From Candidatus Omnitrophota bacterium (GTDB lineage: Bacteria > Omnitrophota > Gorgyraeia > 2-01-FULL-45-10), in assembly GCA_903843285.1 (NCBI GenBank), contig CAIMPC010000007.1, positions 92,730 to 156,729 on the forward strand: DNA of 64,000 nt. The letters run 5' to 3'. The stretch's first letter is position 1. Each line of letters opens with the position of its first letter. The notes beneath the pieces are model-generated. The model had not been told where the DNA came from. It made no database searches and was given only the letters and a program-made list of their open reading frames with translations. Below, in pieces: positions 177-52,312 of this stretch. The translations under genes and the position numbers were made by a program.

Positions 177-968
177 ATTATGAAAAATTTAATTAAATAT
201 TTAATGCACTGTCTTCAGGACTGCATAAGCTTTATCATGTACATCTTCTTGGCCTGGATGAGTAAGAGGCGTCCGGTTACGCTGGTCTACCACTCCGTAG
301 GCAGGGTGGACCCATCGCAGGACCCGTACAGGCTGAGTATCATTCCCGAAAGATTTGAGGAGCATCTGAAGATAATCTCAAAATCCAGGGATGCAGTGAA
401 GATCTCGTTCGATGACGGATATGGGAATAATTACGATAGCGTATTTCCGTTATTGGAGAAGTATGGCCTGACAGCTACTATATTCCTGATAACCGATTTT
501 ATAGATGGTAAGATCGTATCTCAGAAATTTGGCGGAAGAGGCCTATCATTGAGGCCCCTTACCTGGGATGAGATAAAAGCTATGGATAGGGCGGGCATTA
601 TATTCGGTTCTCATACAAAATCTCATCCAAAACTATCCTCTTTATCCCGCGATGCTGTCAGGGAGGAGCTTATGGGCTCAAAAGAGCGTATCGAGGAATT
701 GCTCGGTCATAAGATATATGGCCTGGCATATCCTTCGGGCTACGGCGGCTCATTTAACCCTATGGTAACGGAGGTTGCGAAGGAGGTAGGGTATAAATTT
801 GCCTATACAAACATGATGGGAAGCAATAATTACGGCAAAGAGGAAGGTTTTGGGCTTCGAAGAGTACGAATATATAGCGAAGATGGCCCTATGAAGCTGA
901 AGATGAAGCTGAGGGGGGCCTACGACTGGGTCGATCTGCCCTTTATTCAGCGCCTATTCGTAGCTTGA
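177..968 (+). CDS. polysaccharide deacetylase (NodB-homology / carbohydrate esterase 4) family protein
   Basis: NodB-type motifs FDDGYGNNY, TATIFLITDF, HTKSHP in the translation. The ORF track starts at GTG 147; ATG 177 is preferred because the upstream frame stops at 172, but the start is uncertain. Confidence 0.7.
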   Translation: MMKNLIKYLMHCLQDCISFIMYIFLAWMSKRRPVTLVYHSVGRVDPSQDPYRLSIIPERFEEHLKIISKSRDAVKISFDDGYGNNYDSVFPLLEKYGLTATIFLITDFIDGKIVSQKFGGRGLSLRPLTWDEIKAMDRAGIIFGSHTKSHPKLSSLSRDAVREELMGSKERIEELLGHKIYGLAYPSGYGGSFNPMVTEVAKEVGYKFAYTNMMGSNNYGKEEGFGLRRVRIYSEDGPMKLKMKLRGAYDWVDLPFIQRLFVA

Positions 969-993
969 CAGGATGGACAATAATAGATAAAAT
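965..993 (+). promoter_or_regulatory. sigma70-like promoter: -35 TTGACA (965-970), 17-nt spacer, -10 TAAAAT (988-993)
   Basis: Read directly from the sequence, in the 100-bp gap upstream of the radical SAM gene at 1070. Same architecture as the promoter at 23929-23957. Confidence 0.55.
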
Positions 994-1015
994 CGTTTAA
1001 AACGTTTTGAACGAT
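992..1015. promoter_or_regulatory. 24-bp near-perfect palindrome ATCGTTTAAAACGTTTTGAACGAT (putative operator) overlapping the -10 element
   Basis: Inverted repeat with a perfectly palindromic AAAACGTTTT core. A second copy with the same half-sites lies at 23956-23979. Confidence 0.55.
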
Positions 1016-1069: not shown

Positions 1070-1972
1070 ATGAATAAACTAAGCTGCATAAAAGCACGGC
1101 CGGATCAAAATTACGTAGCCTATTTTCTTACGTTGGCATGTAATCTTCGCTGCCCGTATTGCATTAACATGCATAACGGTGGACCGAAAAAGGCATCTAT
1201 TGAGAGACGCCACCTGACTGCCGATGAATGGATAAAGGCCGCCGACCGCCTCGTGCTGAGGGACGACCTGCCATTGACTCTTCAGGGAGGCGAGCCGACA
1301 TTACATAAAGGCTTTTACGACATAGTGAATAAGGTCAAAGAGTCTATAAAGATGGACCTATTGACCAACATGCATTTCGATACTGACGAATTTATAAAAA
1401 ATGTGCCTGTCTGGCGGTTTACCCGGAAGGCGCCGTATGCGTCCATTAGAGCTTCCTATCATCCGGGACAGAATAACATAGATGAGCTTATTAAGAAGAC
1501 TTTTAAGCTGCAGGATGCGGGTTTCAGGGTAGGTATCTATTCGTTATCGAGCCCCGATGTAAAGACTAAGGAACATGTAGAGGCGGTGCGGGCCAGATGC
1601 CTGAAAGATGGTATAGATTTCAGATATAAAGAGTTCCTAGGAGAGTGGGATGGAAAACTGCACGGAATGTTCAAATATGATGGTTCTGTCATGGGGAGAG
1701 ATACGAGATGGTGCGAATGCAGGACCACAGAGCTCATCGTAGATCCAGCCGGCCATGTCTATAAATGCCACGCCGACCTATACAAGGGCAGGTCTCCTAT
1801 AGAGCATATATTGGATGAAGATTTTAACGGCGAATCCCTCCGGGAGTTCAGGCCTTGCGATAAATATGGTGACTGCAATCCTTGCGATGTTAAAGTTAAA
1901 ACCAACAGGTTTCAGATATTCGGGCACACAAGCGTCGAGATAAGAAATATTAAGAGGCATGATGGCGGATAA
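1070..1972 (+). CDS. radical SAM protein with C-terminal Cys-rich (SPASM/twitch-like) region
   Basis: CNLRCPYC (CxxxCxxC) motif near the N-terminus. C-terminal WCEC...C...CDKYGDCNPC cysteine cluster. Confidence 0.7.
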   Translation: MNKLSCIKARPDQNYVAYFLTLACNLRCPYCINMHNGGPKKASIERRHLTADEWIKAADRLVLRDDLPLTLQGGEPTLHKGFYDIVNKVKESIKMDLLTNMHFDTDEFIKNVPVWRFTRKAPYASIRASYHPGQNNIDELIKKTFKLQDAGFRVGIYSLSSPDVKTKEHVEAVRARCLKDGIDFRYKEFLGEWDGKLHGMFKYDGSVMGRDTRWCECRTTELIVDPAGHVYKCHADLYKGRSPIEHILDEDFNGESLREFRPCDKYGDCNPCDVKVKTNRFQIFGHTSVEIRNIKRHDGG

Positions 1973-3038
1973 ATATCTTATAGACGGCCATAAATTATTC
2001 TGGCACATGGACAAAGTGTCCGACTGGCAGAAAGGAAAGCCGGTAACACCGATCTATATAGAGATCAGTCCGGTGTCACTATGTAATCACAGATGCATAT
2101 TTTGCGGCATAGATTTTGTGCGCGATGTTGATTTTAAGCTCGATACGGAGCTTCTCCGTAAGAGGCTTAAAGAGATGGGCAAGCTCGGCGTTAAAAGTGT
2201 GATGTTTGCCGGAGAAGGCGAGCCCTTACTGCATAATGGCCTGGAGACATTCGTGAAGACGGCGAAAAATGCCGGCATGGATGTGTCGATCACTACGAAC
2301 GGCAGCCTCGGCAATTATAATATATGGAAGAAGCTCCTGCCGTATCTCACCTGGATAAGATTCAGTGTTGATGCCGGGAACGCCGAAAGTTATGCCAGAG
2401 TGCATAAGGTTGCCGGGAGCGTCTTCCACAAAACGATAAAGAGCATAGAGGATGCGGTAAAAGTTAAGAAGGACCTTCGCTTAGATGTGACGATAGGCGT
2501 CCAATTCCTGATGATAGAAGAGAATTTAAAGAGCCTGGAGGATGCCCTTAAACTATTTTCCAAGTCCAGAGTGGACTATTTCAGCTTAAAGCCTTATTCT
2601 CTCCATCCGCAAATGGTGCATAAGCGTGATATATTCTACACAAAACGGATAGCCGGAAATGTCCGTGCGCTTGTAGATAAATTCAGGAAGACATCAAAGA
2701 TGGAAATAATATTCAGGGATGATGCAATGGAAAAGTACGTTGGTAAAAAGAAGCAGTTCGGGCATTGCCGGGCCCTGCCTTTCTGGGGGTATGTATCATC
2801 AAGGGGAGATTTTTATACCTGTAGTGTGTTTATCGGAGATAAGAGATTCAGAGCCGGTAACGTCCACAAGGATAGTATGGCTAAAATATTATTAGGTAAA
2901 GATCGTGCGCGATCTATAGCCTATGCGGCCAGGAAATTGTCTGTCGGTAAAGAATGCAGGGTTAATTGCAGGATGGCGAGAGTAAACGAATTTTTGGAGT
3001 TTTTAGAGAATAGGCCTGAACATATCAATTTCGTATAG
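1959..3038 (+). CDS. radical SAM protein
   Basis: CNHRCIFC (CxxxCxxC) motif and glycine-rich FAGEGEPLL SAM-binding motif. Start overlaps the upstream gene by 14 nt. Confidence 0.7.
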   Translation: MMADKYLIDGHKLFWHMDKVSDWQKGKPVTPIYIEISPVSLCNHRCIFCGIDFVRDVDFKLDTELLRKRLKEMGKLGVKSVMFAGEGEPLLHNGLETFVKTAKNAGMDVSITTNGSLGNYNIWKKLLPYLTWIRFSVDAGNAESYARVHKVAGSVFHKTIKSIEDAVKVKKDLRLDVTIGVQFLMIEENLKSLEDALKLFSKSRVDYFSLKPYSLHPQMVHKRDIFYTKRIAGNVRALVDKFRKTSKMEIIFRDDAMEKYVGKKKQFGHCRALPFWGYVSSRGDFYTCSVFIGDKRFRAGNVHKDSMAKILLGKDRARSIAYAARKLSVGKECRVNCRMARVNEFLEFLENRPEHINFV

Positions 3039-3047
3039 GAGTTAATT

Positions 3048-3995
3048 ATGTCCACAAAGATACTTATCGTGAAGCTGGGATATTCGGAGACGCTCGACTC
3101 GGAGATTACCAGGATCCCAAGTCTCGGGGATGTTTTAAGGACCACGCCGATATTGTGGGCCCTAAAGGAAAAATATCCGGATTCTAATGTCACATGGCTT
3201 GTCGATAAACAGGCTGAACCGCTCTTGCGCGGCAATCATCTTATCGACCGTATACTGATCTGGGACGAGTTTGTGCCGTTTCAGCTTATGAAGGAAAAAT
3301 TTGACATACTGATAAACCTTGAAAAGATAGCGGGCGTCTGTGCTCTATCGGATATGATAGACGCGTGGGTGAAGTATGGTTTCAGGTTCGACGGAATTAA
3401 CGGCACATACCATGCCTACGAACGCGGCCTGGATTTTATCGACTATATTGAGAAGAAAAAAGTGGGCAAGTCCAGAGACTGCTGGCAGAAGATCCTGATA
3501 AAGATGATGGGCTCCGAATGGAAAGGCCAGGAATATATAATCGGCCATAAGCCTAAGTCGAAAGAGATCCACGACGTAGGGCTGAACTATACTGTCGGCT
3601 CGAAATGGCCGCACAAAGCGATGCCTGTCGAGAAATGGCGGGAACTGGAAAAGAAGCTTGTCGCAGAGGGGTATAAGGTATCCTGGCAAGAGGGCGTCGA
3701 CGACTTATATGCGTATATGGATTGGTTGAATTCCTGCAGAATAATAGTGTCGAACGACAGCCTCGGCCTTCACATAGCGTTTGCCCTTAAAAAGAAGGTG
3801 ATAGGGTTATTTGGCCCGACCGATTCGAAAGAGATATATTTCTACGGTGACGGCAAGATCATCCGGTCAAATGTGAAATGTAAAAATATGCCGTGCTATA
3901 AACTGGAGTGCGTATCCGGTAAAAAATGCATGGAAAAGATAAACACTGACGTCATAATCGATCGTGTTAACGATTTCGGAAAAGTGAAAAGGTGA
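3048..3995 (+). CDS. glycosyltransferase family 9 (heptosyltransferase-like)
   Basis: N-terminal ILIVKLGYSETLDS...LGDVLRTTPIL and C-terminal SNDSLGLHIAFALKKKVIGLFGPT motifs, typical of ADP-heptose:LPS heptosyltransferases. Confidence 0.7.
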   Translation: MSTKILIVKLGYSETLDSEITRIPSLGDVLRTTPILWALKEKYPDSNVTWLVDKQAEPLLRGNHLIDRILIWDEFVPFQLMKEKFDILINLEKIAGVCALSDMIDAWVKYGFRFDGINGTYHAYERGLDFIDYIEKKKVGKSRDCWQKILIKMMGSEWKGQEYIIGHKPKSKEIHDVGLNYTVGSKWPHKAMPVEKWRELEKKLVAEGYKVSWQEGVDDLYAYMDWLNSCRIIVSNDSLGLHIAFALKKKVIGLFGPTDSKEIYFYGDGKIIRSNVKCKNMPCYKLECVSGKKCMEKINTDVIIDRVNDFGKVKR

Positions 3996-4837
3996 GCGTG
4001 ACAAATACGGTGCTTAATGCAAAAGATATCAGAAAAAAAGCAGACCGGATAAGGGCGGAAGTTATAGATGTCGCGGTACGGAACGGTGCCGGGCACATCG
4101 CGCCTTCTCTGTCCTGCATCGATATACTCGTAGCGCTCTATTATGGCTCGATGTCCTACAGGCCGGGATATCCCGCTTGGGACGGCAGGGACAGGCTTAT
4201 ATTCTCTAAGGCACATGGCTGCTACACACTGTACGCGATATTAGCTGATATAGGTAATATGCCGAAAGAGGAGTGGAAAAAGTTTTATACCTGCGACAGC
4301 ACGCTCTCCGGCTGCGCAGAAAACAGGCCCGAGTATGGTATCGAGGCAAGCTGTGGTTCTCTGGGTCATGGATTACCCATGGCTGTCGGCAATGCGTTAG
4401 CCGCAAAATTACAGAAGAAGAAATATCACACTTTCTGTATTATCGGGGACGGAGAAATGCAGGAAGGCACCACATGGGAAGCTATTCAGTTTGCGGTTAA
4501 GCATGAGTTGAATAATTTAACCATAATAATCGACGAGAACCGTATTCAAGCCATGGATTTTATTACTAATATCATGGATATCGGGGTAAATGATAAGATA
4601 CGTAAATTAAAAGGTTTTGGCCTGTTGCCCATAGTATGCCCGGGGCATGATGTTGTCAAATTGGCAGGTGCCATCAGGCTCGCCCGCAGGCCATCCGGCA
4701 GAGTTCCCAAGGTACTTATAGCACAAACGACAAAAGGTTTCGGCCTGAAATGCATGGAGGATGTGCCTAAGTTCCATTTTCGTATTCCTACAGAAGAAGA
4801 GATATGTTTGGGAAGAAGCTATGGCTGCGGATATTAA
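3992..4837 (+). CDS. transketolase, N-terminal (TPP-binding) subunit
   Basis: GSLGHGLPMAVGNALAAKL and GDGEMQEGTTWEA motifs of the thiamine-diphosphate-binding half of split transketolases. GTG start. Confidence 0.75.
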   Translation: MSVTNTVLNAKDIRKKADRIRAEVIDVAVRNGAGHIAPSLSCIDILVALYYGSMSYRPGYPAWDGRDRLIFSKAHGCYTLYAILADIGNMPKEEWKKFYTCDSTLSGCAENRPEYGIEASCGSLGHGLPMAVGNALAAKLQKKKYHTFCIIGDGEMQEGTTWEAIQFAVKHELNNLTIIIDENRIQAMDFITNIMDIGVNDKIRKLKGFGLLPIVCPGHDVVKLAGAIRLARRPSGRVPKVLIAQTTKGFGLKCMEDVPKFHFRIPTEEEICLGRSYGCGY

Positions 4838-5312
4838 TTTTAGAAAAGATATAGGCGATAGCCTTCTGCCTTATTTTAAAAAAGATAAACGGCTCCATCT
4901 TTTAGTATGCGATATGGGGTTCGGGGTTGTCGATCGGATCAATAAACAGTTCCCGGGAAGAGTCATTAACTGCGGTATCATGGAACAGGGAACGGTCGGG
5001 ATCGCTGCGGGTATGAGCATGAGCGGTTTAGTTCCCATAGTCTATTCGATAGTGAATTTTCTTGTTTACAGGGCGCTGGAGCAGATGCGGAACGATGTCG
5101 TACTGCAGAAATTAAATGTTAAATTTATCTCTACAGGTGCGGATGATTACTTTAAGTTTCTCGGGCCCTCGCATTGTTGCGCCCAGGATGACATTAAGCT
5201 AATGAAGCTGATCAAGATGAAGGTTTACGATCCTTATACCGATAAGAAGGGTTTTCATAAACTGGTCAAGGAATGGATAGCTGATGATAAAGCAGGTTAC
5301 TTGAGGATCTGA
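4821..5312 (+). CDS. transketolase C-terminal subunit, pyrimidine-binding (Pyr) domain only (about 163 aa)
   Basis: CGIMEQGTVGIAAGMSMSGLVPIV Pyr-domain motif. Start set at ATG 4821 (MAADINF), overlapping the upstream gene by 17 nt. The C-terminal transketolase_C domain appears absent. Confidence 0.65.
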   Translation: MAADINFRKDIGDSLLPYFKKDKRLHLLVCDMGFGVVDRINKQFPGRVINCGIMEQGTVGIAAGMSMSGLVPIVYSIVNFLVYRALEQMRNDVVLQKLNVKFISTGADDYFKFLGPSHCCAQDDIKLMKLIKMKVYDPYTDKKGFHKLVKEWIADDKAGYLRI

Positions 5313-5317
5313 AACAT

Positions 5318-6103
5318 ATGGACAAAAAAATATTAGATCTTACCGTAGTGATGCCGGCACTCAACGAAGAACAGAATATTATATCCGCTATCGATTCGAC
5401 TTTAAAGGCCTTCGAAAGTCTGCATATTAATGGCGAGATCATCATTGTCAATGACGGCAGTTCCGATAAGACGGAAGAGTTAGCCTCCGGCATGATGCAA
5501 GGCGAGAACCGCGTCAGGATGGTAAGGCACGAGATCCCAAGGGGAATTGGCGCGTCATTCTGGGACGGTGTAAAAATTTCCGACGGAGACGCTGTTGTGT
5601 TGATACCGGGAGACAACGAGGTCGATTCCGAGGAGGCCTTGCGCTACTTTCCGCTTATGCAGCATGTAGATATCGTGATACCGTTTGTTTATAACAGGGA
5701 GGTCAGAAACCCGTTTCGTAATTTTCTATCAAGCGTATTCATATTCATTATTAACGTAACTTTCCGCGTTAACCTGAATTATACCAACGGTACGGTTATT
5801 TATCGAAAGTCCGTGCTATCTAAATTATCCCATTACAGTAATGGCTTTTTTTATCAGGCGGAGAGCCTTATAAAATTGATCAAAAAAGGATACCTTTTCG
5901 CCGAAGTACCGTATTATTTGCAGAGAAGAAAATTCGGGTCATCAACAGCGGTTAATTACCCATCACTCTATCGCGTCGCCAAGGGCTATTTTAATCTTAT
6001 CAAAGCTATCTATCTATCGGCAGATTACGCTAATGATAAAAGTCAATTTAATGAAGGATCAATATCCTCGAAACGCTATAAAGCATACGAAGATAAACAA
6101 TAA
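5318..6103 (+). CDS. glycosyltransferase family 2 (polyprenyl-phosphate sugar transferase, DPM1-like)
   Basis: LTVVMPALNEEQNI...IIIVNDGSSDKT GT2 signature. Confidence 0.75.
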   Translation: MDKKILDLTVVMPALNEEQNIISAIDSTLKAFESLHINGEIIIVNDGSSDKTEELASGMMQGENRVRMVRHEIPRGIGASFWDGVKISDGDAVVLIPGDNEVDSEEALRYFPLMQHVDIVIPFVYNREVRNPFRNFLSSVFIFIINVTFRVNLNYTNGTVIYRKSVLSKLSHYSNGFFYQAESLIKLIKKGYLFAEVPYYLQRRKFGSSTAVNYPSLYRVAKGYFNLIKAIYLSADYANDKSQFNEGSISSKRYKAYEDKQ

Positions 6104-9278: not shown

Positions 9279-11060
9279 GTGGAGCATATCACAGGGATTG
9301 TTAAAAAAAATAAGTTTATATTTTCAATGCTGGTGCTGTCATTTTTATGCTGGGGAAGACTTTTATTCCTGAGAGGCATATGGGTGGATGACTGGGCTTG
9401 GATATGGCACTATTTCAGTACCGGCAGCTTATCCGAATTTATCGCACCACTATCGAGTCTGCGTCATCCCTTGGATGGTCTGTTATTTTACGCGAATTTT
9501 AAACTGCTGGATATCATTCCGGCGCAGGCGGATAACATATGGAATATCTGGAAGTTCATATTTTTCATTACTAATCCGATCCTCCTCTATCTGATATTGA
9601 GGGGCTTGATGAAGAACCGCTCCATATTACCGGCAACAATAGCTGCGATCTATTTAACTTCTCCGATCGTCCATAATCTTTGCACGGTCGAGCTTGGCCG
9701 ACGGGTTTATATCTTCGCCTTCCTTGTTTCGATATTGCTATCGATGCTGTCAGTGCGTAAGAGCGGTATCAGGATAACATATTATATATCGGCGGCGATC
9801 CTTTCGGTAATTTCCATTTGCGGCATCGAGAGTTTCTTCTTCTTTGAGCTTGCCCGACCGGCTCTTATATTTTATTTGTTTAATAAAGACCGGAGAGACA
9901 GTTCTCTGAAAAATACCGGTAAAACCGTGATATATTGCATGCCTTTTTTTATTTTAGGGTCATTTATATTATTGTTTAATATGGGAGTCATAAGACCGCG
10001 TTCAGGTGTCTATGCCGATGCTTACACTCTATATCATGTGTCACTGGGCAAGTACCTGATGATCGTTATTAAAGCATATGCTGTGTCTATCGTCCGGTTA
10101 TTTGAGTTTAATTTTCATTTGTTCTTCAATAAGTCCATCCTCGCCAAGGACTATATTTATATATCGTTCACAGCCTTACTGTCAGCGATACTTATGATTT
10201 TTACACTCTTCAGGATCGATAACTCTAAGATAAGCCGTGAAGACCATAGCGATATCGCGATGGAGGCCAGGTCCTGGGTTATCATCGGGGCCATTCTTAC
10301 CATTCTGGGGCTGTTCCCTTACATGGTAGTGCGCGGAGCCTTGTCATTCGGCATCGGAAGCAAGCACGCGATCTTGGCTAGTATTGGTTTTTCAATATTT
10401 TTAGCATCAGCTCTTCTTTGGCTCTATCACAGCGTTCATATAAGAAAGGCTTTCTATTATATTCTATTCGCGGGGGTAATATTTCTCGGCGTCTTTAACT
10501 GCAACGTCGCCGTTAAGGCGTATAGTGATGACTGGCAGCAGCAAAAAGCTTTTTGGGCCGGGTTCGTCAAAAAGGTTCCAGAAATAAAGAAGAACACGTA
10601 TCTTATCGTTGATATGCCGCGCAATGAGCATATGTTTTTAGGCGAGTGGCGGGGTACTTTTGAATTCTCGGCGCCGCTAAACCTGATTTACGCCGCCTCA
10701 AGAAGTAAAGATGACGTGAATAGTCATTTTGCGGATACCTTCGAAGATGCCATGAATGCCGGCTCTGAGCAATCGTACGTAAATATTAGAGATAAGGCAG
10801 AGATCGAGTTTGAGTCGTACAAAGGAATACAGAAGCTGTATCCAAGAAATCTGATAATGGCGTCTTATCATGACGGACGATTATACCTTAATGATGAAAT
10901 TGAAAATTCCGGGCTGGGCGCTGAGGCTTGCGATGCGGCAGCTCATGCGTCGAAAGATCAGATAATTTACGGAAACAGAGCGGCCAGTCATCCGCTGCGA
11001 AGGATAATGGGATTTGAAGATAAAGATTTTCAGCCGATTAAACAGGTGATGAACAAGTAA
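9279..11060 (+). CDS. polytopic integral membrane protein (possible glycan polymerase or GT-C-fold transferase)
   Basis: More than 10 hydrophobic segments. GTG start with AAAGGA RBS. No diagnostic motif recognised. Confidence 0.4.
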   Translation: MEHITGIVKKNKFIFSMLVLSFLCWGRLLFLRGIWVDDWAWIWHYFSTGSLSEFIAPLSSLRHPLDGLLFYANFKLLDIIPAQADNIWNIWKFIFFITNPILLYLILRGLMKNRSILPATIAAIYLTSPIVHNLCTVELGRRVYIFAFLVSILLSMLSVRKSGIRITYYISAAILSVISICGIESFFFFELARPALIFYLFNKDRRDSSLKNTGKTVIYCMPFFILGSFILLFNMGVIRPRSGVYADAYTLYHVSLGKYLMIVIKAYAVSIVRLFEFNFHLFFNKSILAKDYIYISFTALLSAILMIFTLFRIDNSKISREDHSDIAMEARSWVIIGAILTILGLFPYMVVRGALSFGIGSKHAILASIGFSIFLASALLWLYHSVHIRKAFYYILFAGVIFLGVFNCNVAVKAYSDDWQQQKAFWAGFVKKVPEIKKNTYLIVDMPRNEHMFLGEWRGTFEFSAPLNLIYAASRSKDDVNSHFADTFEDAMNAGSEQSYVNIRDKAEIEFESYKGIQKLYPRNLIMASYHDGRLYLNDEIENSGLGAEACDAAAHASKDQIIYGNRAASHPLRRIMGFEDKDFQPIKQVMNK

Positions 11061-12199: not shown

Positions 12200-12236
12200 A
12201 TCGTTTTGACTATAGACATAGTTAGTCGCGGCAGTG

Positions 12237-12242
12237 TATAAT
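12237..12242 (+). promoter_or_regulatory. TATAAT -10-like hexamer in a 101-bp intergenic gap (no convincing -35)
   Basis: gtgTATAAT sits 58 nt upstream of ATG 12301. A TTGACT lies 25 nt upstream, which is too far for a canonical -35. Confidence 0.25.
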
Positions 12243-12300
12243 TTATGATTGCGCTGGTTTACATCCGGCACAGGTAATTTAATTAACCGGAGCATGATTT

Positions 12301-21614: not shown

Positions 21615-23885
21615 ATGGATAGAATCTCTGACAGAGCTGAATCGGTCGGGATCCCGAACCGGATCAAGACAATTTATGTATGCACAGCCGTTCTATTGAT
21701 AAGCGTATTTATAGCCCTGCTTTATCGTCCTATACAAGCCGCGTTTCACGAGCACGATCTCCTATTTATGATGCCTGTCATGTCTTCCATCCCGGCGGGC
21801 CAGTCTTTTTTTGAAAGTATAAAAGTATTTCTTTATAATCCGTACACGATGGTTTTCGGTGACCCATGGATGAATACTTATTTGTCAGTGGTGTTAGCCG
21901 TTTTTGGATTTCAAACAAAGTACTACATTTTTACGTCTATAGCGCTCCACTTTTTATGCGCTCTATTTTTGTATCTTGTCCTACGAATGATAGATTTTGA
22001 TTTCAGAGTTGCCTTTTTTTCGAGCCTCGTGTATTTAACGTTATTTATTCATTTCGGTTATTATTTCTTTCCCATGGCAACCCATCATGTCTTCGTGATC
22101 TTCTTTAGTTTACTGATCATGTACCTTTATTTTAGTACGATGAAAAAAATCGACGAAGATCGTAATTGGAGGTATTTGTTTTGGCTCACGATCTCCGCTA
22201 ACTTCCTGGCGTCTTTTTGCCAGATAACGATCCTTATTTTACCTATCGGCATTCTGTCGCACATTCTAATATCTTCAAATGACGTGGCGGATAGATTAAA
22301 AAAATACGATATCTGGATTCCTTTATTTATAACTTATTTAGGTTACCCTCTCTTGAGAACCGCTTACACGACGTTTCCGCATCTTAAGGTATTTCTTCAT
22401 AGACAAGGTGATGCCCCCGGAGGGCATTCATTGTATTTATTGCTTTTTCTGTCAGGTATCGGTTTGCTTTCTGTTCTTAGATATATTTTAAAGTTGTCCT
22501 GTAAGTATCATTTTGGCAGGATATTGAAGATTCTTTGTGTGTCGGCGATCGTGTCTTATATCGTCGCTTTTATTATCGTATTGGGCAGAAACGATCTGAT
22601 AACGCCGAGCAAGGTAAAATTATTTGATTGGCTGTCCCCGCTTAATATCTTTCGACCCATGGCGGTGATGCTCGAAGATTTTATTTTTCCTATTAAAGCG
22701 GCGTTTTCTACGGATTCAACCGTAATATTCAATGTCATGTCTAGGCATAGTGGCGCCATCGCCTTATCGTCAGCCGTATTTATGTGCGTTATTTTCATGA
22801 AGAAGTTTTTCTTCAGGCACAAAGGCCTTATAGTGATAATGATGTTTTATATCATCGCGCTTCGCTATATGCGAATTGAGACCTCTGTTATCCGGTCGCG
22901 ATATTTTATTTATGTGACGCCTCTGTTCTGTATCGTTTTCTGCTCTTCATTTATGTATATGTACGACCTTATCATTAAAAAGACCAGATTAAAAACGATC
23001 TTTCAGGAGTTCATTTTGGCTCTTATATTTATCGGGCTTTGCATACCGAATATCTTTGCTATAAAGACAGAATTATATAGAAGTAAATTCGTAAATAATT
23101 TTCTTTCGTATGATGATATCAGAGCAGCCTATATTATAAACAACGATATTAATACTTCGGGCTCCATAAGGCTCATTAGTCCGGAAAATATATTTATTGA
23201 GGGTGTTCAGCCCATGCCGTTCATTTTTAACGAGCTTTACACCCTTGAGCTGGAGGACCATTTGAAATATGATCCATTCAGATATGTCTTAGCCCAGACG
23301 CTTGACAATAGATCAGTGCTTCATGTAAGTGTCAATATGGGTAAGCCGGGCGATATGAAAGGAAAATTGTTATTTAATATTAGTGGGCCCAGGATATACG
23401 ATTCAAAAGGCTTAAATATTGACAGATTTAGCTCGTGTTTTGACGATGCTATGCGAGAGCTGAGGCTTGGCGATTACAAAAAGGCCTATGTGCTGTTCAG
23501 GAAAGCCATTGGGATGAGGCCATTTTTGCTGAATTATATATTATCCAAGAACGACTTGAAAGAGCTGAAATGTATTACTGGCGAACGTGACCTAAAAAGC
23601 TGGGTTAAAGTTATAGTGAATTATTATGAGACCACCGGTGGTAATGAAAAGAAAGCGATGAGTAACTCAGCTCTTATTAACGATGAGATAGACGAGTATA
23701 TTAGATGCATTGTTTACGCGGCATATTTAAGCTATATTGCCGGTGAGCGGGAAGAAGGCAATAGGCTCTTGGAGCAGATAAGATACATTGAAAATGACCA
23801 GAATAAGGTACTGGCATTATTGAATAATGAGTCATCAATCCAGTCTGAGCATATCTTACAAGCGTTTTCCTCGAATAGTCCTTAA
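21615..23885 (+). CDS. large polytopic membrane protein with a C-terminal soluble TPR-like region (possible GT-C-fold transferase or polymerase)
   Basis: Many hydrophobic segments in the first roughly 500 aa. C-terminal hydrophilic region with TPR-like repeats. Confidence 0.4.
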   Translation: MDRISDRAESVGIPNRIKTIYVCTAVLLISVFIALLYRPIQAAFHEHDLLFMMPVMSSIPAGQSFFESIKVFLYNPYTMVFGDPWMNTYLSVVLAVFGFQTKYYIFTSIALHFLCALFLYLVLRMIDFDFRVAFFSSLVYLTLFIHFGYYFFPMATHHVFVIFFSLLIMYLYFSTMKKIDEDRNWRYLFWLTISANFLASFCQITILILPIGILSHILISSNDVADRLKKYDIWIPLFITYLGYPLLRTAYTTFPHLKVFLHRQGDAPGGHSLYLLLFLSGIGLLSVLRYILKLSCKYHFGRILKILCVSAIVSYIVAFIIVLGRNDLITPSKVKLFDWLSPLNIFRPMAVMLEDFIFPIKAAFSTDSTVIFNVMSRHSGAIALSSAVFMCVIFMKKFFFRHKGLIVIMMFYIIALRYMRIETSVIRSRYFIYVTPLFCIVFCSSFMYMYDLIIKKTRLKTIFQEFILALIFIGLCIPNIFAIKTELYRSKFVNNFLSYDDIRAAYIINNDINTSGSIRLISPENIFIEGVQPMPFIFNELYTLELEDHLKYDPFRYVLAQTLDNRSVLHVSVNMGKPGDMKGKLLFNISGPRIYDSKGLNIDRFSSCFDDAMRELRLGDYKKAYVLFRKAIGMRPFLLNYILSKNDLKELKCITGERDLKSWVKVIVNYYETTGGNEKKAMSNSALINDEIDEYIRCIVYAAYLSYIAGEREEGNRLLEQIRYIENDQNKVLALLNNESSIQSEHILQAFSSNSP

Positions 23886-23928: not shown

Positions 23929-23957
23929 TTGACAAAGTTATCGGCAGATAGTATTAT
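23929..23957 (+). promoter_or_regulatory. sigma70-like promoter: -35 TTGACA (23929-23934), 17-nt spacer, -10 TATTAT (23952-23957)
   Basis: Read directly from the sequence in the 108-bp gap upstream of the regulator gene. RBS AAGGA lies 7 nt before ATG 23994. Confidence 0.6.
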
Positions 23958-23979
23958 CGTTTAGAACGTTATAAACGAT
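23956..23979. promoter_or_regulatory. 24-bp palindrome ATCGTTTAGAACGTTATAAACGAT (putative operator), second copy
   Basis: Same half-sites (ATCGTTTA / TAAACGAT) and same position relative to the -10 as the copy at 992-1015. Confidence 0.55.
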
Positions 23980-23993
23980 AATAAGGATAAATT

Positions 23994-24488
23994 ATGCATA
24001 ATAAGCTTGAAATGGCACAAGATAAGTTTATGGAGGGCATAGGTAAGCTGGCGGAAAGTGTTGGCGTTAGCCGCTTTATCGCCCAGTTATACGCAGTTCT
24101 ATATCTAAGTGATAGGCCTTTATCCCTGGATGATCTAGTTGAACGTCTAAAAGCAAGCAAAGGCAATATAAGCCTCAATATAAGGGAGCTTGAAAAGTGG
24201 GGAGGCGTTAAGAACATTTGGGTTAAAGGCTCACGCAAGGACTATTATGAAGCGGACCCCGATATTAAGAAATTTGTTCTTAAGAAGATCAGGTCCGGGG
24301 TCCAGAAAAGGATAGGGCAGGTTACGGATATGATGGATGAGTTTAAAGAATTGATAAACTCCGGTAATGATGAAATGGGTGACGAAGATAAGATGATAGT
24401 AAAAACGTATCATGAAAAACTGAAGAATATTGAAAATATGAAGAGCCTGGCCGACAAAGCGCTTATGCTGGCCGATAAATTATTATAA
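23994..24488 (+). CDS. winged-helix transcriptional regulator, GbsR/COG1510 (MarR-like) family
   Basis: RFIAQLYAVLYLSDRPLSLDDLVERLKASKGNISLNIRELEKWGGV...WVKGSRKDYYEA matches the characteristic HTH and RKDYYEA block of COG1510 regulators. Confidence 0.55.
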   Translation: MHNKLEMAQDKFMEGIGKLAESVGVSRFIAQLYAVLYLSDRPLSLDDLVERLKASKGNISLNIRELEKWGGVKNIWVKGSRKDYYEADPDIKKFVLKKIRSGVQKRIGQVTDMMDEFKELINSGNDEMGDEDKMIVKTYHEKLKNIENMKSLADKALMLADKLL

Positions 24489-25556
24489 GTGCGTATGAAA
24501 AAGACGAGAAAAACATGTAAGCAGAATGAAATAAGAATAGGCAAGAGACAAGTCGGTGCCGCCTATCCTCCGCTAGTGATCGCCGAGATAGGCATTAATC
24601 ACGAGGGAGTATTCGAAAAGGCCGTCAAGATGATAGACGACGCTGCCAGGGTAGGGTGCGAGTGCGTTAAGTTCCAGTCTCATATTATTGATGATGAGAT
24701 GATCCCGAATCGGGTTATCCCGGCAAACGCGAAAGAATCGATATGGGAGATAATGGATCGTTGTGCCCTGTCGGAGAATGAAGAGGCCAAGCTGAAAGAA
24801 TATACCGAATCAAAAGGGATGATATTCTTAAGTACGCCTTTTTCCAGGGCCGCGGCAGAGAGATTGAAAAGGATCGGACTTGCTGCCTATAAGATAGGAT
24901 CTGGAGAGTGCAATAATTACCCGCTGGTCGAACACATATCCCGATATGGCAAACCGGTGATCCTTTCGACAGGAATGAATAATATTAAAAGCATAGGGAG
25001 ATCCGTAAGGATATTGAATGATGCCGATGTTCCGCTTGCTATCATGCACTGCACAAGTATGTACCCTACCCCTTACAATAAGATCCGTCTGGGAGCTATC
25101 GCCGAGCTTAAAGCTGCGTTCCCGATAGCGGTGGTGGGGCTATCCGATCACTCGCTATCTAACTATCCCTGTCTTGCGGCTGTGGCTCTAGGGGCTAGCC
25201 TTATTGAAAGGCATTTTACATCCGATAAGAGATGGCCTGGACCCGATATTCCAATTTCAATGGATCCGAAAGAGCTAAGGGAGCTTATCGAGGGCAGTAG
25301 GGCAATTCACGAAAGCCTTGGCGGGTCCAAGAATATACTGAAAGAGGAGCAGCCCACAATAGATTTTGCCTATGCCTGCGTAGTAGCTACGCGCGATATT
25401 GCGGCCGGGGAGCGTTTCAGCGCTGACAATATTTGGGTTAAACGGCCTGGCACCGGGCAGATAAAGGCAGAACACTATAACAGAGTTCTGAATAAGAGAG
25501 CCAGGTCAGAGATAAAGAAGAACGAGCAAATCGTGTGGAGCAAAATAGATGGCTAA
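24489..25556 (+). CDS. neuB: nonulosonic acid (sialic acid-like) synthase, NeuB/PseI/LegI family, with C-terminal SAF domain
   Basis: PPLVIAEIGINHEG...CVKFQ TIM-barrel N-terminus and C-terminal antifreeze-like domain (ATRDIAAGERF...WVKRPGTG). Family-level call only. Confidence 0.8.
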   Translation: MRMKKTRKTCKQNEIRIGKRQVGAAYPPLVIAEIGINHEGVFEKAVKMIDDAARVGCECVKFQSHIIDDEMIPNRVIPANAKESIWEIMDRCALSENEEAKLKEYTESKGMIFLSTPFSRAAAERLKRIGLAAYKIGSGECNNYPLVEHISRYGKPVILSTGMNNIKSIGRSVRILNDADVPLAIMHCTSMYPTPYNKIRLGAIAELKAAFPIAVVGLSDHSLSNYPCLAAVALGASLIERHFTSDKRWPGPDIPISMDPKELRELIEGSRAIHESLGGSKNILKEEQPTIDFAYACVVATRDIAAGERFSADNIWVKRPGTGQIKAEHYNRVLNKRARSEIKKNEQIVWSKIDG

Positions 25557-34618: not shown

Positions 34619-35277
34619 CACATCGCATCGTGATCGTAGATTATGGAGCCGGAAACCTTTATAGCATAGAGCGGGCATTGGATTTCATAGGCGTTCAAGC
34701 CGAAGTGGTAAGCACTCCGGAAAAGATAGCTGGTGCCGAACGCATAATTTTGCCGGGAGTCGGCGCTTTCAAGAACGGTATGCGAGGATTGTCTGAACGT
34801 GGCCTGGTAGGTCCGCTGCAGGAATATGTCAGGTCGGGCCGACCATTGCTCGGCATCTGTCTGGGCATGCAGCTACTGATGAGTGAAAGTGAGGAATTTG
34901 GCAGATACGATGGACTCAACATGGTCAAGGGCAAGGTAGTCCGGTTAGACCCAGCGCTTCCAGGCAAGGAGCGATTCAAGGTTCCGCATGTAGGATGGAG
35001 CAGGGTAATACGGAGGGAAAGCAGTTGTGCGGAGATGCCGGATGGGTGGACGGAGGGCGTTCTTAAGAGCCTCCCCAATGGTTTCTTTGCATATTTTGCC
35101 CACTCATTTGTGGTTGTGCCCGAAGATGGCTCGGCCTGTATAGCTCAGACAAAGTATGGTGGAGCGACATTTTGCTCTTGCCTGCAGCAGAATAATTTAT
35201 ACGGCTGCCAGTTCCATCCGGAGCGTAGCGGCATAGAAGGTTTGGAGATCTATAGGGACTTTGTCCGGAGAAATTAG
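34615..35277 (+). CDS. glutamine amidotransferase HisH-like (WbuY-like)
   Basis: IVIVDYGAGNLYSIERAL...LPGVGAF class I GATase signature. Confidence 0.8.
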   Translation: MTHRIVIVDYGAGNLYSIERALDFIGVQAEVVSTPEKIAGAERIILPGVGAFKNGMRGLSERGLVGPLQEYVRSGRPLLGICLGMQLLMSESEEFGRYDGLNMVKGKVVRLDPALPGKERFKVPHVGWSRVIRRESSCAEMPDGWTEGVLKSLPNGFFAYFAHSFVVVPEDGSACIAQTKYGGATFCSCLQQNNLYGCQFHPERSGIEGLEIYRDFVRRN

Positions 35278-36445
35278 CTTTATGGGAAGAATAAAAAAAA
35301 TTGTGTTTCTCATAGAGTCTTGCTACAACAAACGAGACCACGAGCGTTTCGGTATCGATATACTGATTAGGAACGGCTTCGATGTTGAAGTCTGGGATTT
35401 TACGTCGATCTTAGCTTCATCCAAATTCGGCAAAGTAAGACCTCCAGATCCGATAAAATGGAATAAATGGACTCTCTTCGAAACCAAAAAACAGGCTGTA
35501 GACGCTCTCCTGAGTTTGGACCGGTCGGTATATATTGTTTCGCTGGTCCGTTGTTATAGTAAGACGTTTTATCTGTATAAGGCCATTAAAAATAAAATGA
35601 CGCCTTATTGCGTACTGGGTGACAGTACGCCAAAAAGCTCGAGGCAGGAAGAAGCGGTCGTGAAGCAGATTAAGAACTTCACTTTTAGAAAACTGCTTCG
35701 TAAGATCACTGAGATCAAACCATTGAAATATTATTCGGTAATGGCGCCGGATATTATAATGGCCATGGGAGAGAGATATTTTGCGAATACTTACCCGGTG
35801 AGGAAAGAGACTGAGGTGGTCTGGTCGCATAGTTTCGACTACGATATCTATATGAAGATGAAAGGCTCTGCCGGTATAGCTAACCCTAAAGTTTGGGTTT
35901 TCTTAGACGTCTATTTCCCATTTCATCCGGATTTCATTAATTACGGGCTATCATTGAATGCCGATCCCGATGAATACCATTTGTCGCTTCGCCGATTTTT
36001 TGATCATATTCAGAGCGCATTTGGTGTTAGGAGCATAATTGCAGCGCACCCGCGTTCACATTATGAAAAACACGGTGATTGTTTTGGCGGCCGGGAGATC
36101 GTACGTGGCAGGACAGCGCAGCTGGTGAGGGAAAGCGATCTTGTAATCATGCATAATTCTCTCGCAATTAATTATGCCGTCCTTTTTAAAAAGCCTATCA
36201 TCTTCGTTACTACGAATCAGTATAACGCCAGTCAGGTTTATGAGGAGCCTTCAGTGAAATGGCTTGCCGGCTATTTCGGAAAAAGAGTGCATAATCTCGA
36301 TGACCCTATTAATGTAAAGCTGGAGGAAGAGATGAAAGTTAATGAGCCGGCGTACAGCAAATACAGGAACGATCACATAAAAAAAGAGGGTTCGGCAGAA
36401 TTACCATTCTGGCAGATCCTGGCCGATAGGCTTAAGCTAAAGTAG
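35261..36445 (+). CDS. putative CMP-sugar (nonulosonate/Kdo) glycosyltransferase, sialyltransferase/KpsC-KpsS-like GT-B with HP motif
   Basis: AAHPRS (HP motif), then about 28 aa later LVIMHNSLAINYAVLFKKPIIFV, resembling the C-terminal nucleotide-binding half of capsule Kdo transferases and bacterial sialyltransferases. Tentative. Confidence 0.35.
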   Translation: MSGEISFMGRIKKIVFLIESCYNKRDHERFGIDILIRNGFDVEVWDFTSILASSKFGKVRPPDPIKWNKWTLFETKKQAVDALLSLDRSVYIVSLVRCYSKTFYLYKAIKNKMTPYCVLGDSTPKSSRQEEAVVKQIKNFTFRKLLRKITEIKPLKYYSVMAPDIIMAMGERYFANTYPVRKETEVVWSHSFDYDIYMKMKGSAGIANPKVWVFLDVYFPFHPDFINYGLSLNADPDEYHLSLRRFFDHIQSAFGVRSIIAAHPRSHYEKHGDCFGGREIVRGRTAQLVRESDLVIMHNSLAINYAVLFKKPIIFVTTNQYNASQVYEEPSVKWLAGYFGKRVHNLDDPINVKLEEEMKVNEPAYSKYRNDHIKKEGSAELPFWQILADRLKLK

Positions 36446-43794: not shown

Positions 43795-45783
43795 ATGGGA
43801 AGTCGTGATATGGCGGATATTCTAAATATAAATAATAAATCAGTTTGCTGGGTTGAAAAACTGACCGTTCCGGACATTCTCTTTTTTTTGATCCATAGCT
43901 GTTTTGCTGATATAAAGGTAAATTACGACCAGAATCAGGTGCGTCCATCGGCTCGTAAGTTTCTCAGGTTATTAGAAAAATTACGGATAGGTGATTGCTT
44001 TTGCGCCGTAAAACTATCGCTTCATGGAGTTGACCGGGAAGGGTTCGCTTTATTCTATAAGGTCAATAATGATATCGAAGGCTGCATAGAGGATTTTTTT
44101 GCGCGGCATATTTCACGCGAGTCGAAGCGCTTTAAGGATATGCTTAAGTCCTATCTGGCTGGATACATAATAGGCAAATTTACTTTTATCGCTATGGTAG
44201 ATCATGAAATCTACTCAAAAAAACTGCCTGAAGGCCAAGGCAATCTCATACATCTTTCCAGGAGTCCATTCAATCACCTGATTCGTAATTATTATAGTGA
44301 CCGCGAATTTACTGTTAGCATGCCGTTCCTATCGTTAAGCGGTTTAACCTTTTATCTTAGACCTTTCTTTTATTTGGCTGGCGTTTTATTATGCAAAATT
44401 TTCAGTTTCAAAGTACGTAATAATATCACAGACATTAAGCCAGCCGTATGGGTTGAATATAGTCCAGGATATCTTCATTCTTTTTGGGTAGACCATATTA
44501 AATCAGGGGACTTCGATATTGTATATTATATAGACCGCCCTGATACGCCAACAACAAAAGAGATAACGGATGAGATAGAGGGCCGGGGATTGAAATGGGT
44601 TGACGCGCATCCTTTGTCGGTGCTTAAGATGGGCAGACTACGATGGTCAGTTATTATGGAGATGTTCAAAAAACTGTTTCATGTCTATCTTTCTAAGCCT
44701 GTGTGGTTGGGAATATTCCGATATGAGCACTATTATCTATCAGTGGCATATGAAGCGATATTTTCTCGTCACAAGGTGAAGGTGTTATTGCAACACCAGG
44801 AAGCCCTCTGGAAACAGGAATCGCAGGCCCTGGCGATAGAGCGTTCCGGCGGGATCATGGTGGGGTATCACTGGTCTGTTTATGCTTTCTGTCTGGTGCC
44901 TGCACATTTTTTCCCCCAACATGTTTATTTTGTATGGGGTAAATACATGGGTGAATTACTCAGTAAGAAGGGTAGCGCGTGTCGTTACGTGCTGCCATCC
45001 GGAATATGGATCGTCCCAGGTGATAAGGGCCATCAGGCTGGAGATCTTTTTAGCGATAATGTCAATTTTATTATAACCGTTTTTGATGATTCTGTAAGCT
45101 ACAACGTATTCCAATCTCCGGGCTCGTTGGCTGACTTCTATCTAAGGATCCTGAGTATAGCTGAAAACAACCCAAGGTTTGGCTGTATAATAAAAAGCAA
45201 GAATCCGCTCGATCGAGTGCTCATGTCGATTCCCTCAGGGAAAGAGATCAAAAAAAGGGCCGAAGCCCTAAGGATACAAAAGAGGTTGACGATACTTGAT
45301 TCTTCCGTTTCACCGGTTGTCGCGGCGACGCATTCAGACCTATCCGTAGGCTATAGCGTAAATTCAGCGTGTACTATCTCGGCGATAATATGTGGCTCGG
45401 CTGCTATTTGTTGGGATTGCGCAGGGTTTAGGAAGCATCCATTCTATAAGCACTCGGATCAGAAGCTTGTCTTCAGCACTTTGGATGAGCTCGAAGAAGC
45501 TATTTTGAAGTTTAGCAGGGGCGATAAGACTATAGGGGATTACAGCCGATGGAAGAAGTGCATAAATCATTTTGAAGATGTTGCTGGAATTAACCGTATA
45601 GCCGGTTTTTTGACGGACTATATGAAAGAGAACATGTCAACTGGTAAACCTGAGCATTCTCTGGATTTTGCGGTAAAGAAGTACCTGAATGAAAATAAAG
45701 TCGGTGACGATTTTTATGAACATGAAGATATCTGGAATAGTGAGATATTCACGGAATGTCAGGCGGGCATGAATGTTAAATAA
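43795..45783 (+). CDS. hypothetical protein; C-terminal half resembles the GT-B nucleotide-binding half of KpsC/sialyltransferase-like enzymes, with NP in place of HP
   Basis: KSKNPLD... then LSVGYSVNSACTISAIICGSAAICW parallels the HP...GAASGTMIEAASVGIPVIA pattern of the ORF at 52309. Very tentative. Confidence 0.3.
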   Translation: MGSRDMADILNINNKSVCWVEKLTVPDILFFLIHSCFADIKVNYDQNQVRPSARKFLRLLEKLRIGDCFCAVKLSLHGVDREGFALFYKVNNDIEGCIEDFFARHISRESKRFKDMLKSYLAGYIIGKFTFIAMVDHEIYSKKLPEGQGNLIHLSRSPFNHLIRNYYSDREFTVSMPFLSLSGLTFYLRPFFYLAGVLLCKIFSFKVRNNITDIKPAVWVEYSPGYLHSFWVDHIKSGDFDIVYYIDRPDTPTTKEITDEIEGRGLKWVDAHPLSVLKMGRLRWSVIMEMFKKLFHVYLSKPVWLGIFRYEHYYLSVAYEAIFSRHKVKVLLQHQEALWKQESQALAIERSGGIMVGYHWSVYAFCLVPAHFFPQHVYFVWGKYMGELLSKKGSACRYVLPSGIWIVPGDKGHQAGDLFSDNVNFIITVFDDSVSYNVFQSPGSLADFYLRILSIAENNPRFGCIIKSKNPLDRVLMSIPSGKEIKKRAEALRIQKRLTILDSSVSPVVAATHSDLSVGYSVNSACTISAIICGSAAICWDCAGFRKHPFYKHSDQKLVFSTLDELEEAILKFSRGDKTIGDYSRWKKCINHFEDVAGINRIAGFLTDYMKENMSTGKPEHSLDFAVKKYLNENKVGDDFYEHEDIWNSEIFTECQAGMNVK

Positions 45784-51638: not shown

Positions 51639-52312
51639 TCTCAATAAACAAATATAAGACTTGGATATTCGATTGCGATGGTGTTATTTTGGATTCCAAT
51701 GGTATTAAGACAGAAGCATTTTATGAAGTGGCGCTACCGTATGGAAAGGATAACGCCGCAGCTCTGGTGAAGTACCACAAAGAATACGGCGGGATGTCGC
51801 GTTTTAGAAAATTCGATTATTTCTTTAAGGATATCCTAAAGATGAAAGTTTTTGACAATGAATTTGCGCGAGCGTTGGAAAAATATGGATCGCTTGTCAG
51901 CAAGAAGATGATAGGATGTCCGGAATCACAGGGTTTAAGATCGTTCTTGGGCCTGATACCGGAAAAAATCCGCAAGATAGTCGTCTCGGGAGGCATGGAA
52001 AATGAACTACGGGATATTTTTGCAAAGCGTGGACTCAGCGTATATTTTAATGATATATATGGCAGCCCAGATGCTAAAGAGGTAATACTGAAGAGGGAGC
52101 AAAAGGCGGGCATGATAGCATCGCCCTCGATATTTATTGGTGACACGCAATATGATCACGAGTGCGCGCAAAAGATAGGCGCAGATTTTATATTCATGTC
52201 CGGGTATACTGAATTTGATGGATGGAAGCATTATTGCGATGTAAAAAATGTTATTGTTGTCCAGGATTTAACATATCTCAAAGCTCGTTTGGATGGTGGA
52301 AAGAACTCATGA
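51635..52312 (+). CDS. HAD-superfamily hydrolase (phosphatase, subfamily IA-like)
   Basis: WIFDCDGVILDS motif I (DxDG). Downstream GDTQYD motif. Confidence 0.7.
   Translation: MISINKYKTWIFDCDGVILDSNGIKTEAFYEVALPYGKDNAAALVKYHKEYGGMSRFRKFDYFFKDILKMKVFDNEFARALEKYGSLVSKKMIGCPESQGLRSFLGLIPEKIRKIVVSGGMENELRDIFAKRGLSVYFNDIYGSPDAKEVILKREQKAGMIASPSIFIGDTQYDHECAQKIGADFIFMSGYTEFDGWKHYCDVKNVIVVQDLTYLKARLDGGKNS

Follow-up and report, generated by a model that had tools for sequence, protein, structure and literature searches.

Those proteins of the GbsR family that have been characterised are dimeric repressors acting on inverted repeats located at a promoter or behind it (PMC7396694, PMC6207618); OpcR hinders the promoter sterically, and GbsR forms a roadblock past the start site (PMC7396694). 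Within a survey of this family Mj223 belongs to a heterogeneous group without known function, operator, targets or effector (PMC6207618, PMC7396694), and it is devoid of the aromatic-cage region (PMC6207618). The structure of Mj223 was solved in 2002 and its branch has since been without a known target or function. Here we analysed a stretch of 64,000 nucleotides (nt) from a Candidatus Omnitrophota bacterium (GenBank assembly GCA_903843285.1, contig CAIMPC010000007.1, positions 92,730 to 156,729 of the forward strand), in the following called the window, which carries two copies of a module made of a sigma-70 promoter and a palindrome, one of them ahead of a gene for an Mj223-like regulator (23994-24488, + strand). 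We propose, with a probability of roughly 80%, that the two palindromes are operators of this 164-amino-acid (aa) Mj223/GbsR-type repressor, which would thereby repress its own gene and co-repress a second glycan unit through occlusion of the -10 element and the start site.

In copy 1 the -35 hexamer TTGACA (965-970, + strand; seen in the sequence, in the promoter scan with 11/12 matches and against the list of open reading frames) and the -10 hexamer TAAAAT (988-993, + strand; sequence and promoter scan) are separated by 17 nt and run into the 24-base-pair (bp) palindrome ATCGTTTAAAACGTTTTGAACGAT (992-1015, no strand assigned), whose conserved core GTTTAAAAC/GTTTTGAAC (995-1012) was defined from 66 distinct orthologous sites. 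Copy 2 has the -35 hexamer TTGACA (23929-23934, + strand) and, again after a 17-nt spacer, the -10 hexamer TATTAT (23952-23957, + strand), both seen in the sequence and in the promoter scan, followed by the palindrome ATCGTTTAGAACGTTATAAACGAT (23956-23979, no strand assigned; core 23959-23976). Each palindrome is self-complementary at 22/24 positions and begins 2 nt within its -10 hexamer, and in the scan both promoters are intergenic, point at a gene and match the sigma-70 consensus at 11/12 positions with a 17-nt spacer. From the usual distance of 6–8 nt, transcription would be expected to start near 999-1001 in copy 1 and near 23963-23965 in copy 2. Behind the copy 2 palindrome follow an AAGGA ribosome-binding site and the ATG of the regulator gene, which lies 14 nt past the palindrome, and the gap ahead of the radical S-adenosylmethionine (SAM) gene next to copy 1 measures 101 nt (969-1069). 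The polysaccharide deacetylase gene upstream ends with a TGA codon (966-968) that is embedded in the copy 1 -35 hexamer, so that this coding region and the promoter adjoin without a terminator in between, and a terminator-like site was found neither ahead of copy 1 nor ahead of copy 2. The positions and sequences that the initial annotation had given for promoter and palindrome of both copies could all be confirmed in the sequence. The copies are identical at 29/34 positions of hexamers and palindrome, their spacers agree at only 3/17 positions and their flanks are unrelated; on this comparison the two modules are kept alike by function and are no recently copied segment.

Both copies stand alone in the window. 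A pattern search allowing up to 3 mismatches matched only copies 1 and 2 in 64 kilobases (kb), with 0.00 matches expected from shuffles, and a 22-nt weight matrix built from the orthologous sites described below scored copy 1 with 30.8 bits and copy 2 with 30.5 bits, the best of 50 shuffles reaching 18.5. No weaker site elsewhere in the window, other gaps included, reaches 8 bits with this matrix, and neither the 8.9 kb upstream (L113) nor the 9.1 kb downstream (L116) on the source contig contains a further site, so that about 82 kb of the gene island described below have these two sites and no other. Among the 40 kb scanned for promoters only one other intergenic + strand site scores equally (12213-12242), and a fourth 11/12 site at 21811 is intragenic.

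Evidence for an operator comes from the orthologues of the regulator, compared across about 70 related genomes. More than 300 homologues were found, and the best 120 share 57–100% identity with the window protein, are nearly all 164 aa long and, wherever their source is named, belong to Candidatus Omnitrophota. All homologue loci long enough to be judged lie in one-strand sugar-nucleotide/glycan clusters, and the genes directly behind the regulator vary between NeuB, DegT, a DAO-type oxidoreductase and a guanosine diphosphate (GDP)-mannose-dehydratase-like enzyme. The module TTGACA-17-TATTAT/CGTTTAGAACGTTTTAAACGAT stands in front of the regulator in L004, and in L006 it precedes a phosphopantetheinyl transferase gene directly ahead of the regulator. 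A metagenome scan with the regulator protein alignment gave 80 further loci with 42–85% identity, almost all with the module upstream. For counting we required a minimum of 120 nt of DNA ahead of the regulator gene, which 76 orthologue loci provide, and took as a site any match that reaches 20 bits and lies no more than 200 nt upstream of the start codon; 65 of the 76 have one, compared to only 2 such matches in 609 kb elsewhere in those loci. The architecture is conserved as well, as from 67 distinct sites 61 show a perfect TTGACA, 59 a 17-nt spacer, 60 a -10 element ending 1–2 nt before the core G and 62 a promoter match of at least 10/12. The core derived from 66 distinct sites reads GTTTARAAY/RTTYTAAAC and makes up the inner 18–20 bp, with T and A positions being near invariant (T2-T4, A5, A7-A8, T11-T12, T14, A15-C18), and here base identity is conserved beyond mere pairing. 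The outer arms ATCGTT/AACGAT (ATCG...CGAT) are only moderately conserved, mainly in close relatives, so the 24-bp motif of the initial annotation stands as a palindrome but its emphasis on these arms gives way to the inner core. As the distance from site to start codon ranges from 13 to 75 nt, the site is locked to the promoter and not to the coding region. Such conservation of promoter and palindrome before orthologues down to 42% identity is the signature to be expected from an autoregulatory operator.

Several loci show variants of this arrangement. The most distant clade with 42–45% identity (L088-L108, e.g. L101 9942-9972) has a third 9-mer in direct orientation, GTTCTAAAC, behind the operator GTTTAGAAC-ATTCTAAAC, and these operators, with three 9-bp units instead of two, may accommodate a second dimer or a shifted register. 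In L006 (9518-10000; GCA_900218215.1, ORJL010179075.1) the phosphopantetheinyl transferase gene, an ACPS, lies between the promoter-operator module (9518-9567) and the regulator, and a degenerate operator remnant without promoter (GTTTAAAGCGTTTTAAACGA, 26 bits) is present directly before the regulator ATG; this looks like an insertion that duplicated part of the operator. One Omnitrophota genome (L006, L038; contigs of 307,680 and 327,990 nt) encodes two regulator paralogues on one contig, P0032 and P0041, being 68% and 66% identical to the window protein and having a module each, and their nearly identical operators imply cross-regulation. Intact regulator orthologues without a nearby module are found in L035, L051, L055, L063/L064 and L072, the latter with 5.6 kb of upstream sequence available, and their modules may be located further upstream or may have been lost.

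The protein itself fits a DNA-binding repressor of this family. The regulator shows a weak Pfam MarR_2 match and matches the NCBIfam model CudC (GbsR family) with 68.2 bits (E 7.6e-19, residues 3-146), missing the curated cut-off of 218 bits for this osmoprotectant-type equivalog. A profile built from 26 homologues found Mj223 in the PDB (1KU9, E 3.2e-27, residues 5-159), and in the AlphaFold2 model of the regulator (predicted local distance difference test score, pLDDT, of 84.7) two long helices come after a winged helix-turn-helix (helices H2-22, H27-38, H45-52 and H56-68, strands 72-75 and 84-87, helices H91-123 and H130-163), corresponding to the fold of the COG1510-type GbsR family of the MarR superfamily with an N-terminal winged helix-turn-helix and a C-terminal helical dimerisation domain. 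Using this model as Foldseek query, 1KU9 was again the best match (E 5.7e-12, 32% identity), followed by 4NB5, 5JBR and MarR proteins, and the JGI annotation of several homologues reads 'GbsR (MarR family)'. These matches to CudC and, by profile and fold, to 1KU9 bear out the GbsR-type regulator that had been assigned to 23994-24488. The recognition helix presumably lies around S55-L66 (SKGNISLNIRELEKWG) and the wing around W76-Y85 (WVKGSRKDYY); both are almost invariant (SKG[NS].S.NIRELE.WG and WVKGSRKD[YF]YEA) even at 42–45% overall identity, and this near-invariance of helix and wing is paralleled by the invariance of the half-sites. A dimer binding an inverted-repeat operator would be expected for such a protein. 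Neither opu nor gbsAB nor other betaine gene families were found among the Pfam matches of the window or the called genes of the fetched loci.

The initial annotation had proposed to scan whole genomes for the palindrome, and we searched one genome each for 185,579 species with the strict motif ATCGTT-N3-AACGTT-N3-AACGAT. With 22 occurrences in all of these genomes it is no common genomic word. Four occurrences belong to Omnitrophota, three of them directly before a regulator orthologue and one (L026) in a second promoter copy. The remaining 18 are single matches in unrelated phyla, and no regulator homologue was found in the 2–8 kb fetched around each of them, which is why we treated them as chance matches and not as the same system. 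A rough chance estimate for an 18-base pattern in about 600 gigabases is of the same order as these 18 matches, and by this count the strict motif does not exceed chance outside Omnitrophota.

The second promoter copy in L026 (TTGACA-17-TATCAT/CGTTTAAAACGTTTTAAACGAT) is located on the same 710-kb contig as a regulator, more than 10 kb away from it, and precedes homologues of the window genes 11075 (66% identity) and 12301 (68%). Taking the two window copies and the L026 copy together, at least two genomes have a predicted regulon comprising two or more promoters. The idea of a dedicated repressor gating at least two transcription units, as put forward for the window from the start, is thus echoed in a second genome, with repression itself being a prediction. 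In the window, the promoter-like site 12213-12242 mentioned above (TAGACA-18-TATAAT) lies in the 101-nt gap before the vitamin B12-binding radical SAM gene 12301 and has no operator; a half-site-like ATCGTTTTGAC is found just upstream of it at 12200-12210, and in L026 and L033 the homologous gene pair is controlled from a predicted operator module.

In the mechanism that we propose, a regulator dimer would bind the inverted half-sites TTTARAA and TTYTAAA, whose centres are 9–10 bp apart, within a site that starts 1–2 nt past the -10 hexamer and would cover the expected start from roughly -6 to +14. The bound repressor would then block open-complex formation or promoter escape at two near-consensus and presumably strong sigma-70 promoters. 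At copy 2 the regulator would in this way repress its own gene along with the nonulosonic-acid operon led by NeuB, and copy 1 would place a second unit of the same glycan island (radical SAM/GT9/transketolase onward) under the same control. Bound repressor might also serve as a roadblock to read-through from upstream genes, which is plausible because upstream terminators are missing and because GbsR from Bacillus subtilis works that way (PMC7396694), and a small-molecule effector would trigger release of the repressor. Repression by occlusion is best supported, as the predicted operator covers about -6 to +14 at a promoter that needs no activator. Both window sites overlap 11/12 promoters in intergenic gaps, the only roles where an operator makes sense. 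Binding, the direction of the regulation, the start sites, the roadblock and the effector-triggered release are predictions from sequence.

Some observations weigh against this proposal. The weight matrix scores the same orthologous sites from which it was built, the support independent of it being the window-derived pattern that matches L004 and L006 and the genome scan. Within the set of 76 orthologue loci 11 show no nearby site, and no ligand pocket was identified in the regulator. Furthermore, three other contigs (L109, L110/L111 and L112) carry an orthologue of the radical SAM gene downstream of copy 1 but no counterpart of copy 1 before it, the orthologous gene being located mid-operon without any gap or site. 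Two of these three contigs are from Omnitrophota genomes that also carry the regulator, and the two-promoter regulon, documented in two genomes only, could be lineage-specific. The direction of the effect also has to be considered, as a regulator of this kind might activate, which a site at this position fits less well.

Activation or dual regulation, for instance by a promoter remodelling of the MerR type, can be thought of because some MarR-family proteins do activate. The two promoters need no activator, however, having a perfect -35 hexamer, an optimal 17-nt spacer and a good -10 hexamer, the site lies over the start region instead of upstream of or within a suboptimal spacer, and the characterised relatives GbsR, OpcR, OpuAR and CydE are repressors (PMC7396694, PMC6207618), all of which makes an activator very unlikely. 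Another protein might bind the site, such as an unlinked global regulator for which the GbsR-type gene is merely one target. The identity of the binding protein lies beyond what sequence alone can tell and the 11 loci without a site would be in line with this idea, but the site stays with the regulator gene in about 65 loci whose genes are otherwise shuffled, the conservation of the reading head goes along with that of the half-sites, and the site is almost absent from the remaining 609 kb of flanking DNA; we regard an unlinked factor as improbable.

Palindromes can also act in RNA, and a 5' hairpin, an attenuator or a riboswitch element of the leader would be the respective explanation. The full 24-mers could fold into weak hairpins (-7.5 and -6.4 kcal/mol) that are better than those of shuffles, and transcription reading through from upstream genes would produce RNAs with the complete palindrome. 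A transcript started at the promoter itself would lack the left arm, as the -10 hexamer overlaps the palindrome, and leaders folded from the expected starts are no stabler than shuffles (z = 0.25 and 0.09). Rfam 15 gave no match at gathering score in the whole window, with a single chance-level hit (uxuA, 18.1 vs 66.8 bits), the bases across the 66 sites are invariant and not covarying, and the palindrome keeps its position relative to the -10 hexamer and not to the start codon. With no Rfam match, no stabler leaders and no covariation the RNA element was rejected, and we give it hardly any chance. The smallest probability of all goes to the view that the copies are remnants of repeats or mobile elements, or recombination sites for the exchange or inversion of glycan cassettes. 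It would agree with the polysaccharide cassettes mentioned as hypervariable in passages of an Omnitrophota genome survey (bioRxiv 10.64898/2026.06.07.730766) and with L006, where a full and a degenerate operator copy lie on the two sides of the inserted phosphopantetheinyl transferase gene. Yet only hexamers and palindrome are common to the two window copies, most genomes have a single copy within 10 kb on either side, all independent assemblies show the same co-directional arrangement, and no recombinase was found among the genes of the window. Operators of the Mj223-like repressor are the explanation that we prefer for the two palindromes.

The roughly 58 genes of the window are all located on the + strand and form an island for surface-glycan biosynthesis. 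They encode two NeuB-type synthases, three cytidine monophosphate (CMP)-sugar cytidylyltransferases, a UDP-N-acetylglucosamine 2-epimerase, WbuX with HisF and HisH, DegT and class-III aminotransferases, several glycosyltransferases, nine B12-binding radical SAM enzymes, an ABC exporter and an MBOAT acyltransferase. According to the gene calls of the same contig, co-directional sugar genes extend at least 8.9 kb upstream of the window, and downstream the co-directional genes run on for about 10 kb with a WecA/MraY-type transferase, Wzy_C and GT9. The island thus exceeds 80 kb, and because of the sugar genes continuing upstream copy 1 is an internal promoter rather than the head of the island. 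Behind copy 2, the gene for a NeuB-type nonulosonic acid synthase (24489-25556, + strand; Pfam, NCBIfam and gene calls) begins 0–6 nt after the regulator gene, is presumably co-transcribed with it and opens a long run of sugar-nucleotide and B12-binding radical SAM genes. Five large proteins (394–756 aa; 9279-11060, 21615-23885, 35261-36445, 43795-45783 and 52222-53838) have no Pfam match, and those at 9279-11060 and 21615-23885 have no NCBIfam match either. The largest of them, with 756 aa and encoded just ahead of the regulator gene, is kept beside DegT in other Omnitrophota (L036, L072, L085).

The first gene downstream of copy 1 (1070-1972, + strand) encodes a radical SAM protein of 300 aa, assigned by Pfam and with its start confirmed by the gene calls of the same contig. 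It heads a tightly packed + strand run with radical SAM/SPASM, GT9, split transketolase, GT2, B12-binding radical SAM, methyltransferase and other genes, and the next sizeable gap after this run is at 12200-12300. The part from 1070 to 6103 is syntenic in L109, L110 and L112 and comprises the radical SAM (300 aa), radical SAM/SPASM, GT9, split transketolase (N and pyrimidine-binding parts) and GT2 genes. Homologues of its first gene are 64–84% identical and include proteins from Nitrospirota, Planctomycetota, Desulfobacterota and relatives of Geobacter, and the cassette looks like a horizontally shared module for glycan modification. We also considered the copy 1 module as part of this cassette and dropped the idea as L109, L110/L111 and L112 carry no site.

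The mechanism proposed here is a classical, textbook repressor-operator pair of the MarR/GbsR type. New are the predicted glycan and nonulosonic-acid targets, the Omnitrophota lineage and an operator that is explicitly predicted for the first time within the Mj223-like branch of the GbsR/MarR proteins. A literature search combining Omnitrophota and GbsR-type regulators yielded no paper linking the two, and the regulator of the window is not mentioned in those passages of the genome survey that deal with regulators and polysaccharide loci (bioRxiv 10.64898/2026.06.07.730766). The putative operator cGTTTARAAYRTTYTAAACg, located 1–2 nt past the -10 element, is concrete and testable, and surface-glycan and nonulosonic-acid clusters give this branch a physiological context. 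At the same time the locus offers a rare view of transcriptional control in Omnitrophota, which are mostly known from metagenomes only, and the invariant TTGACA-17-TAnnnT in about 60 lineages is direct comparative evidence for the use of canonical sigma-70 promoters in this phylum. As a speculation, which we consider rather doubtful, the Mj223-like branch might be a phylum-wide feedback regulator of surface-glycan synthesis (nonulosonic acid or O-antigen-like) in Omnitrophota that senses a sugar-nucleotide or CMP-nonulosonate intermediate and, by promoter occlusion and roadblocking, splits one-strand superclusters of more than 80 kb into separately gated units. If this were true, the near-identical reading head of Mj223 would predict a related operator of the TTTAGAA type in methanogens.

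Compared to the described systems, Mj223 itself (MJ0223 from Methanocaldococcus jannaschii, 1KU9) is the closest solved relative by profile and fold. The regulator aligns with it end to end and shares its domain order, in which two long helices at the C-terminus come after an N-terminal winged helix-turn-helix, and has a very similar reading head (SKGN[IV]S...; VW[IV]KG.RK.YYEA). In contrast to the archaeal protein the window protein is 12 residues longer, and for it an operator and target operons can be predicted. GbsR, OpcR and OpuAR from Bacillus belong to the same family and are dimeric repressors at A/T-rich inverted repeats near sigma-A promoters, but they control uptake and synthesis of osmoprotectants and recognise choline or glycine betaine via an aromatic cage, whereas the window protein is found in glycan clusters. 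The sites differ too, as the predicted operator in the window consists of two 9-bp arms without spacer immediately past the -10 element, whereas the half-sites for GbsR are 4 bp apart and located downstream of the start, and the OpcR site lies over the -35 element. CydE from Alishewanella, the sulfate-induced repressor of cydAB, shows that repression by GbsR-family proteins also reaches unrelated operons and works without an aromatic cage (PMC6207618). It differs from the window regulator in targets, effector and phylum. Classical MarR with marO and MepR likewise combine a winged-helix dimer and a palindromic operator over the -10 element or start with an operon that begins with the regulator gene and is negatively autoregulated. 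Weaker fold matches to the regulator model were obtained for MepR and further MarR structures, and the window regulator represents a different subfamily with C-terminal instead of N/C-terminal dimerisation helices, whose predicted targets are sugar-nucleotide and glycan genes and not genes for efflux or stress.

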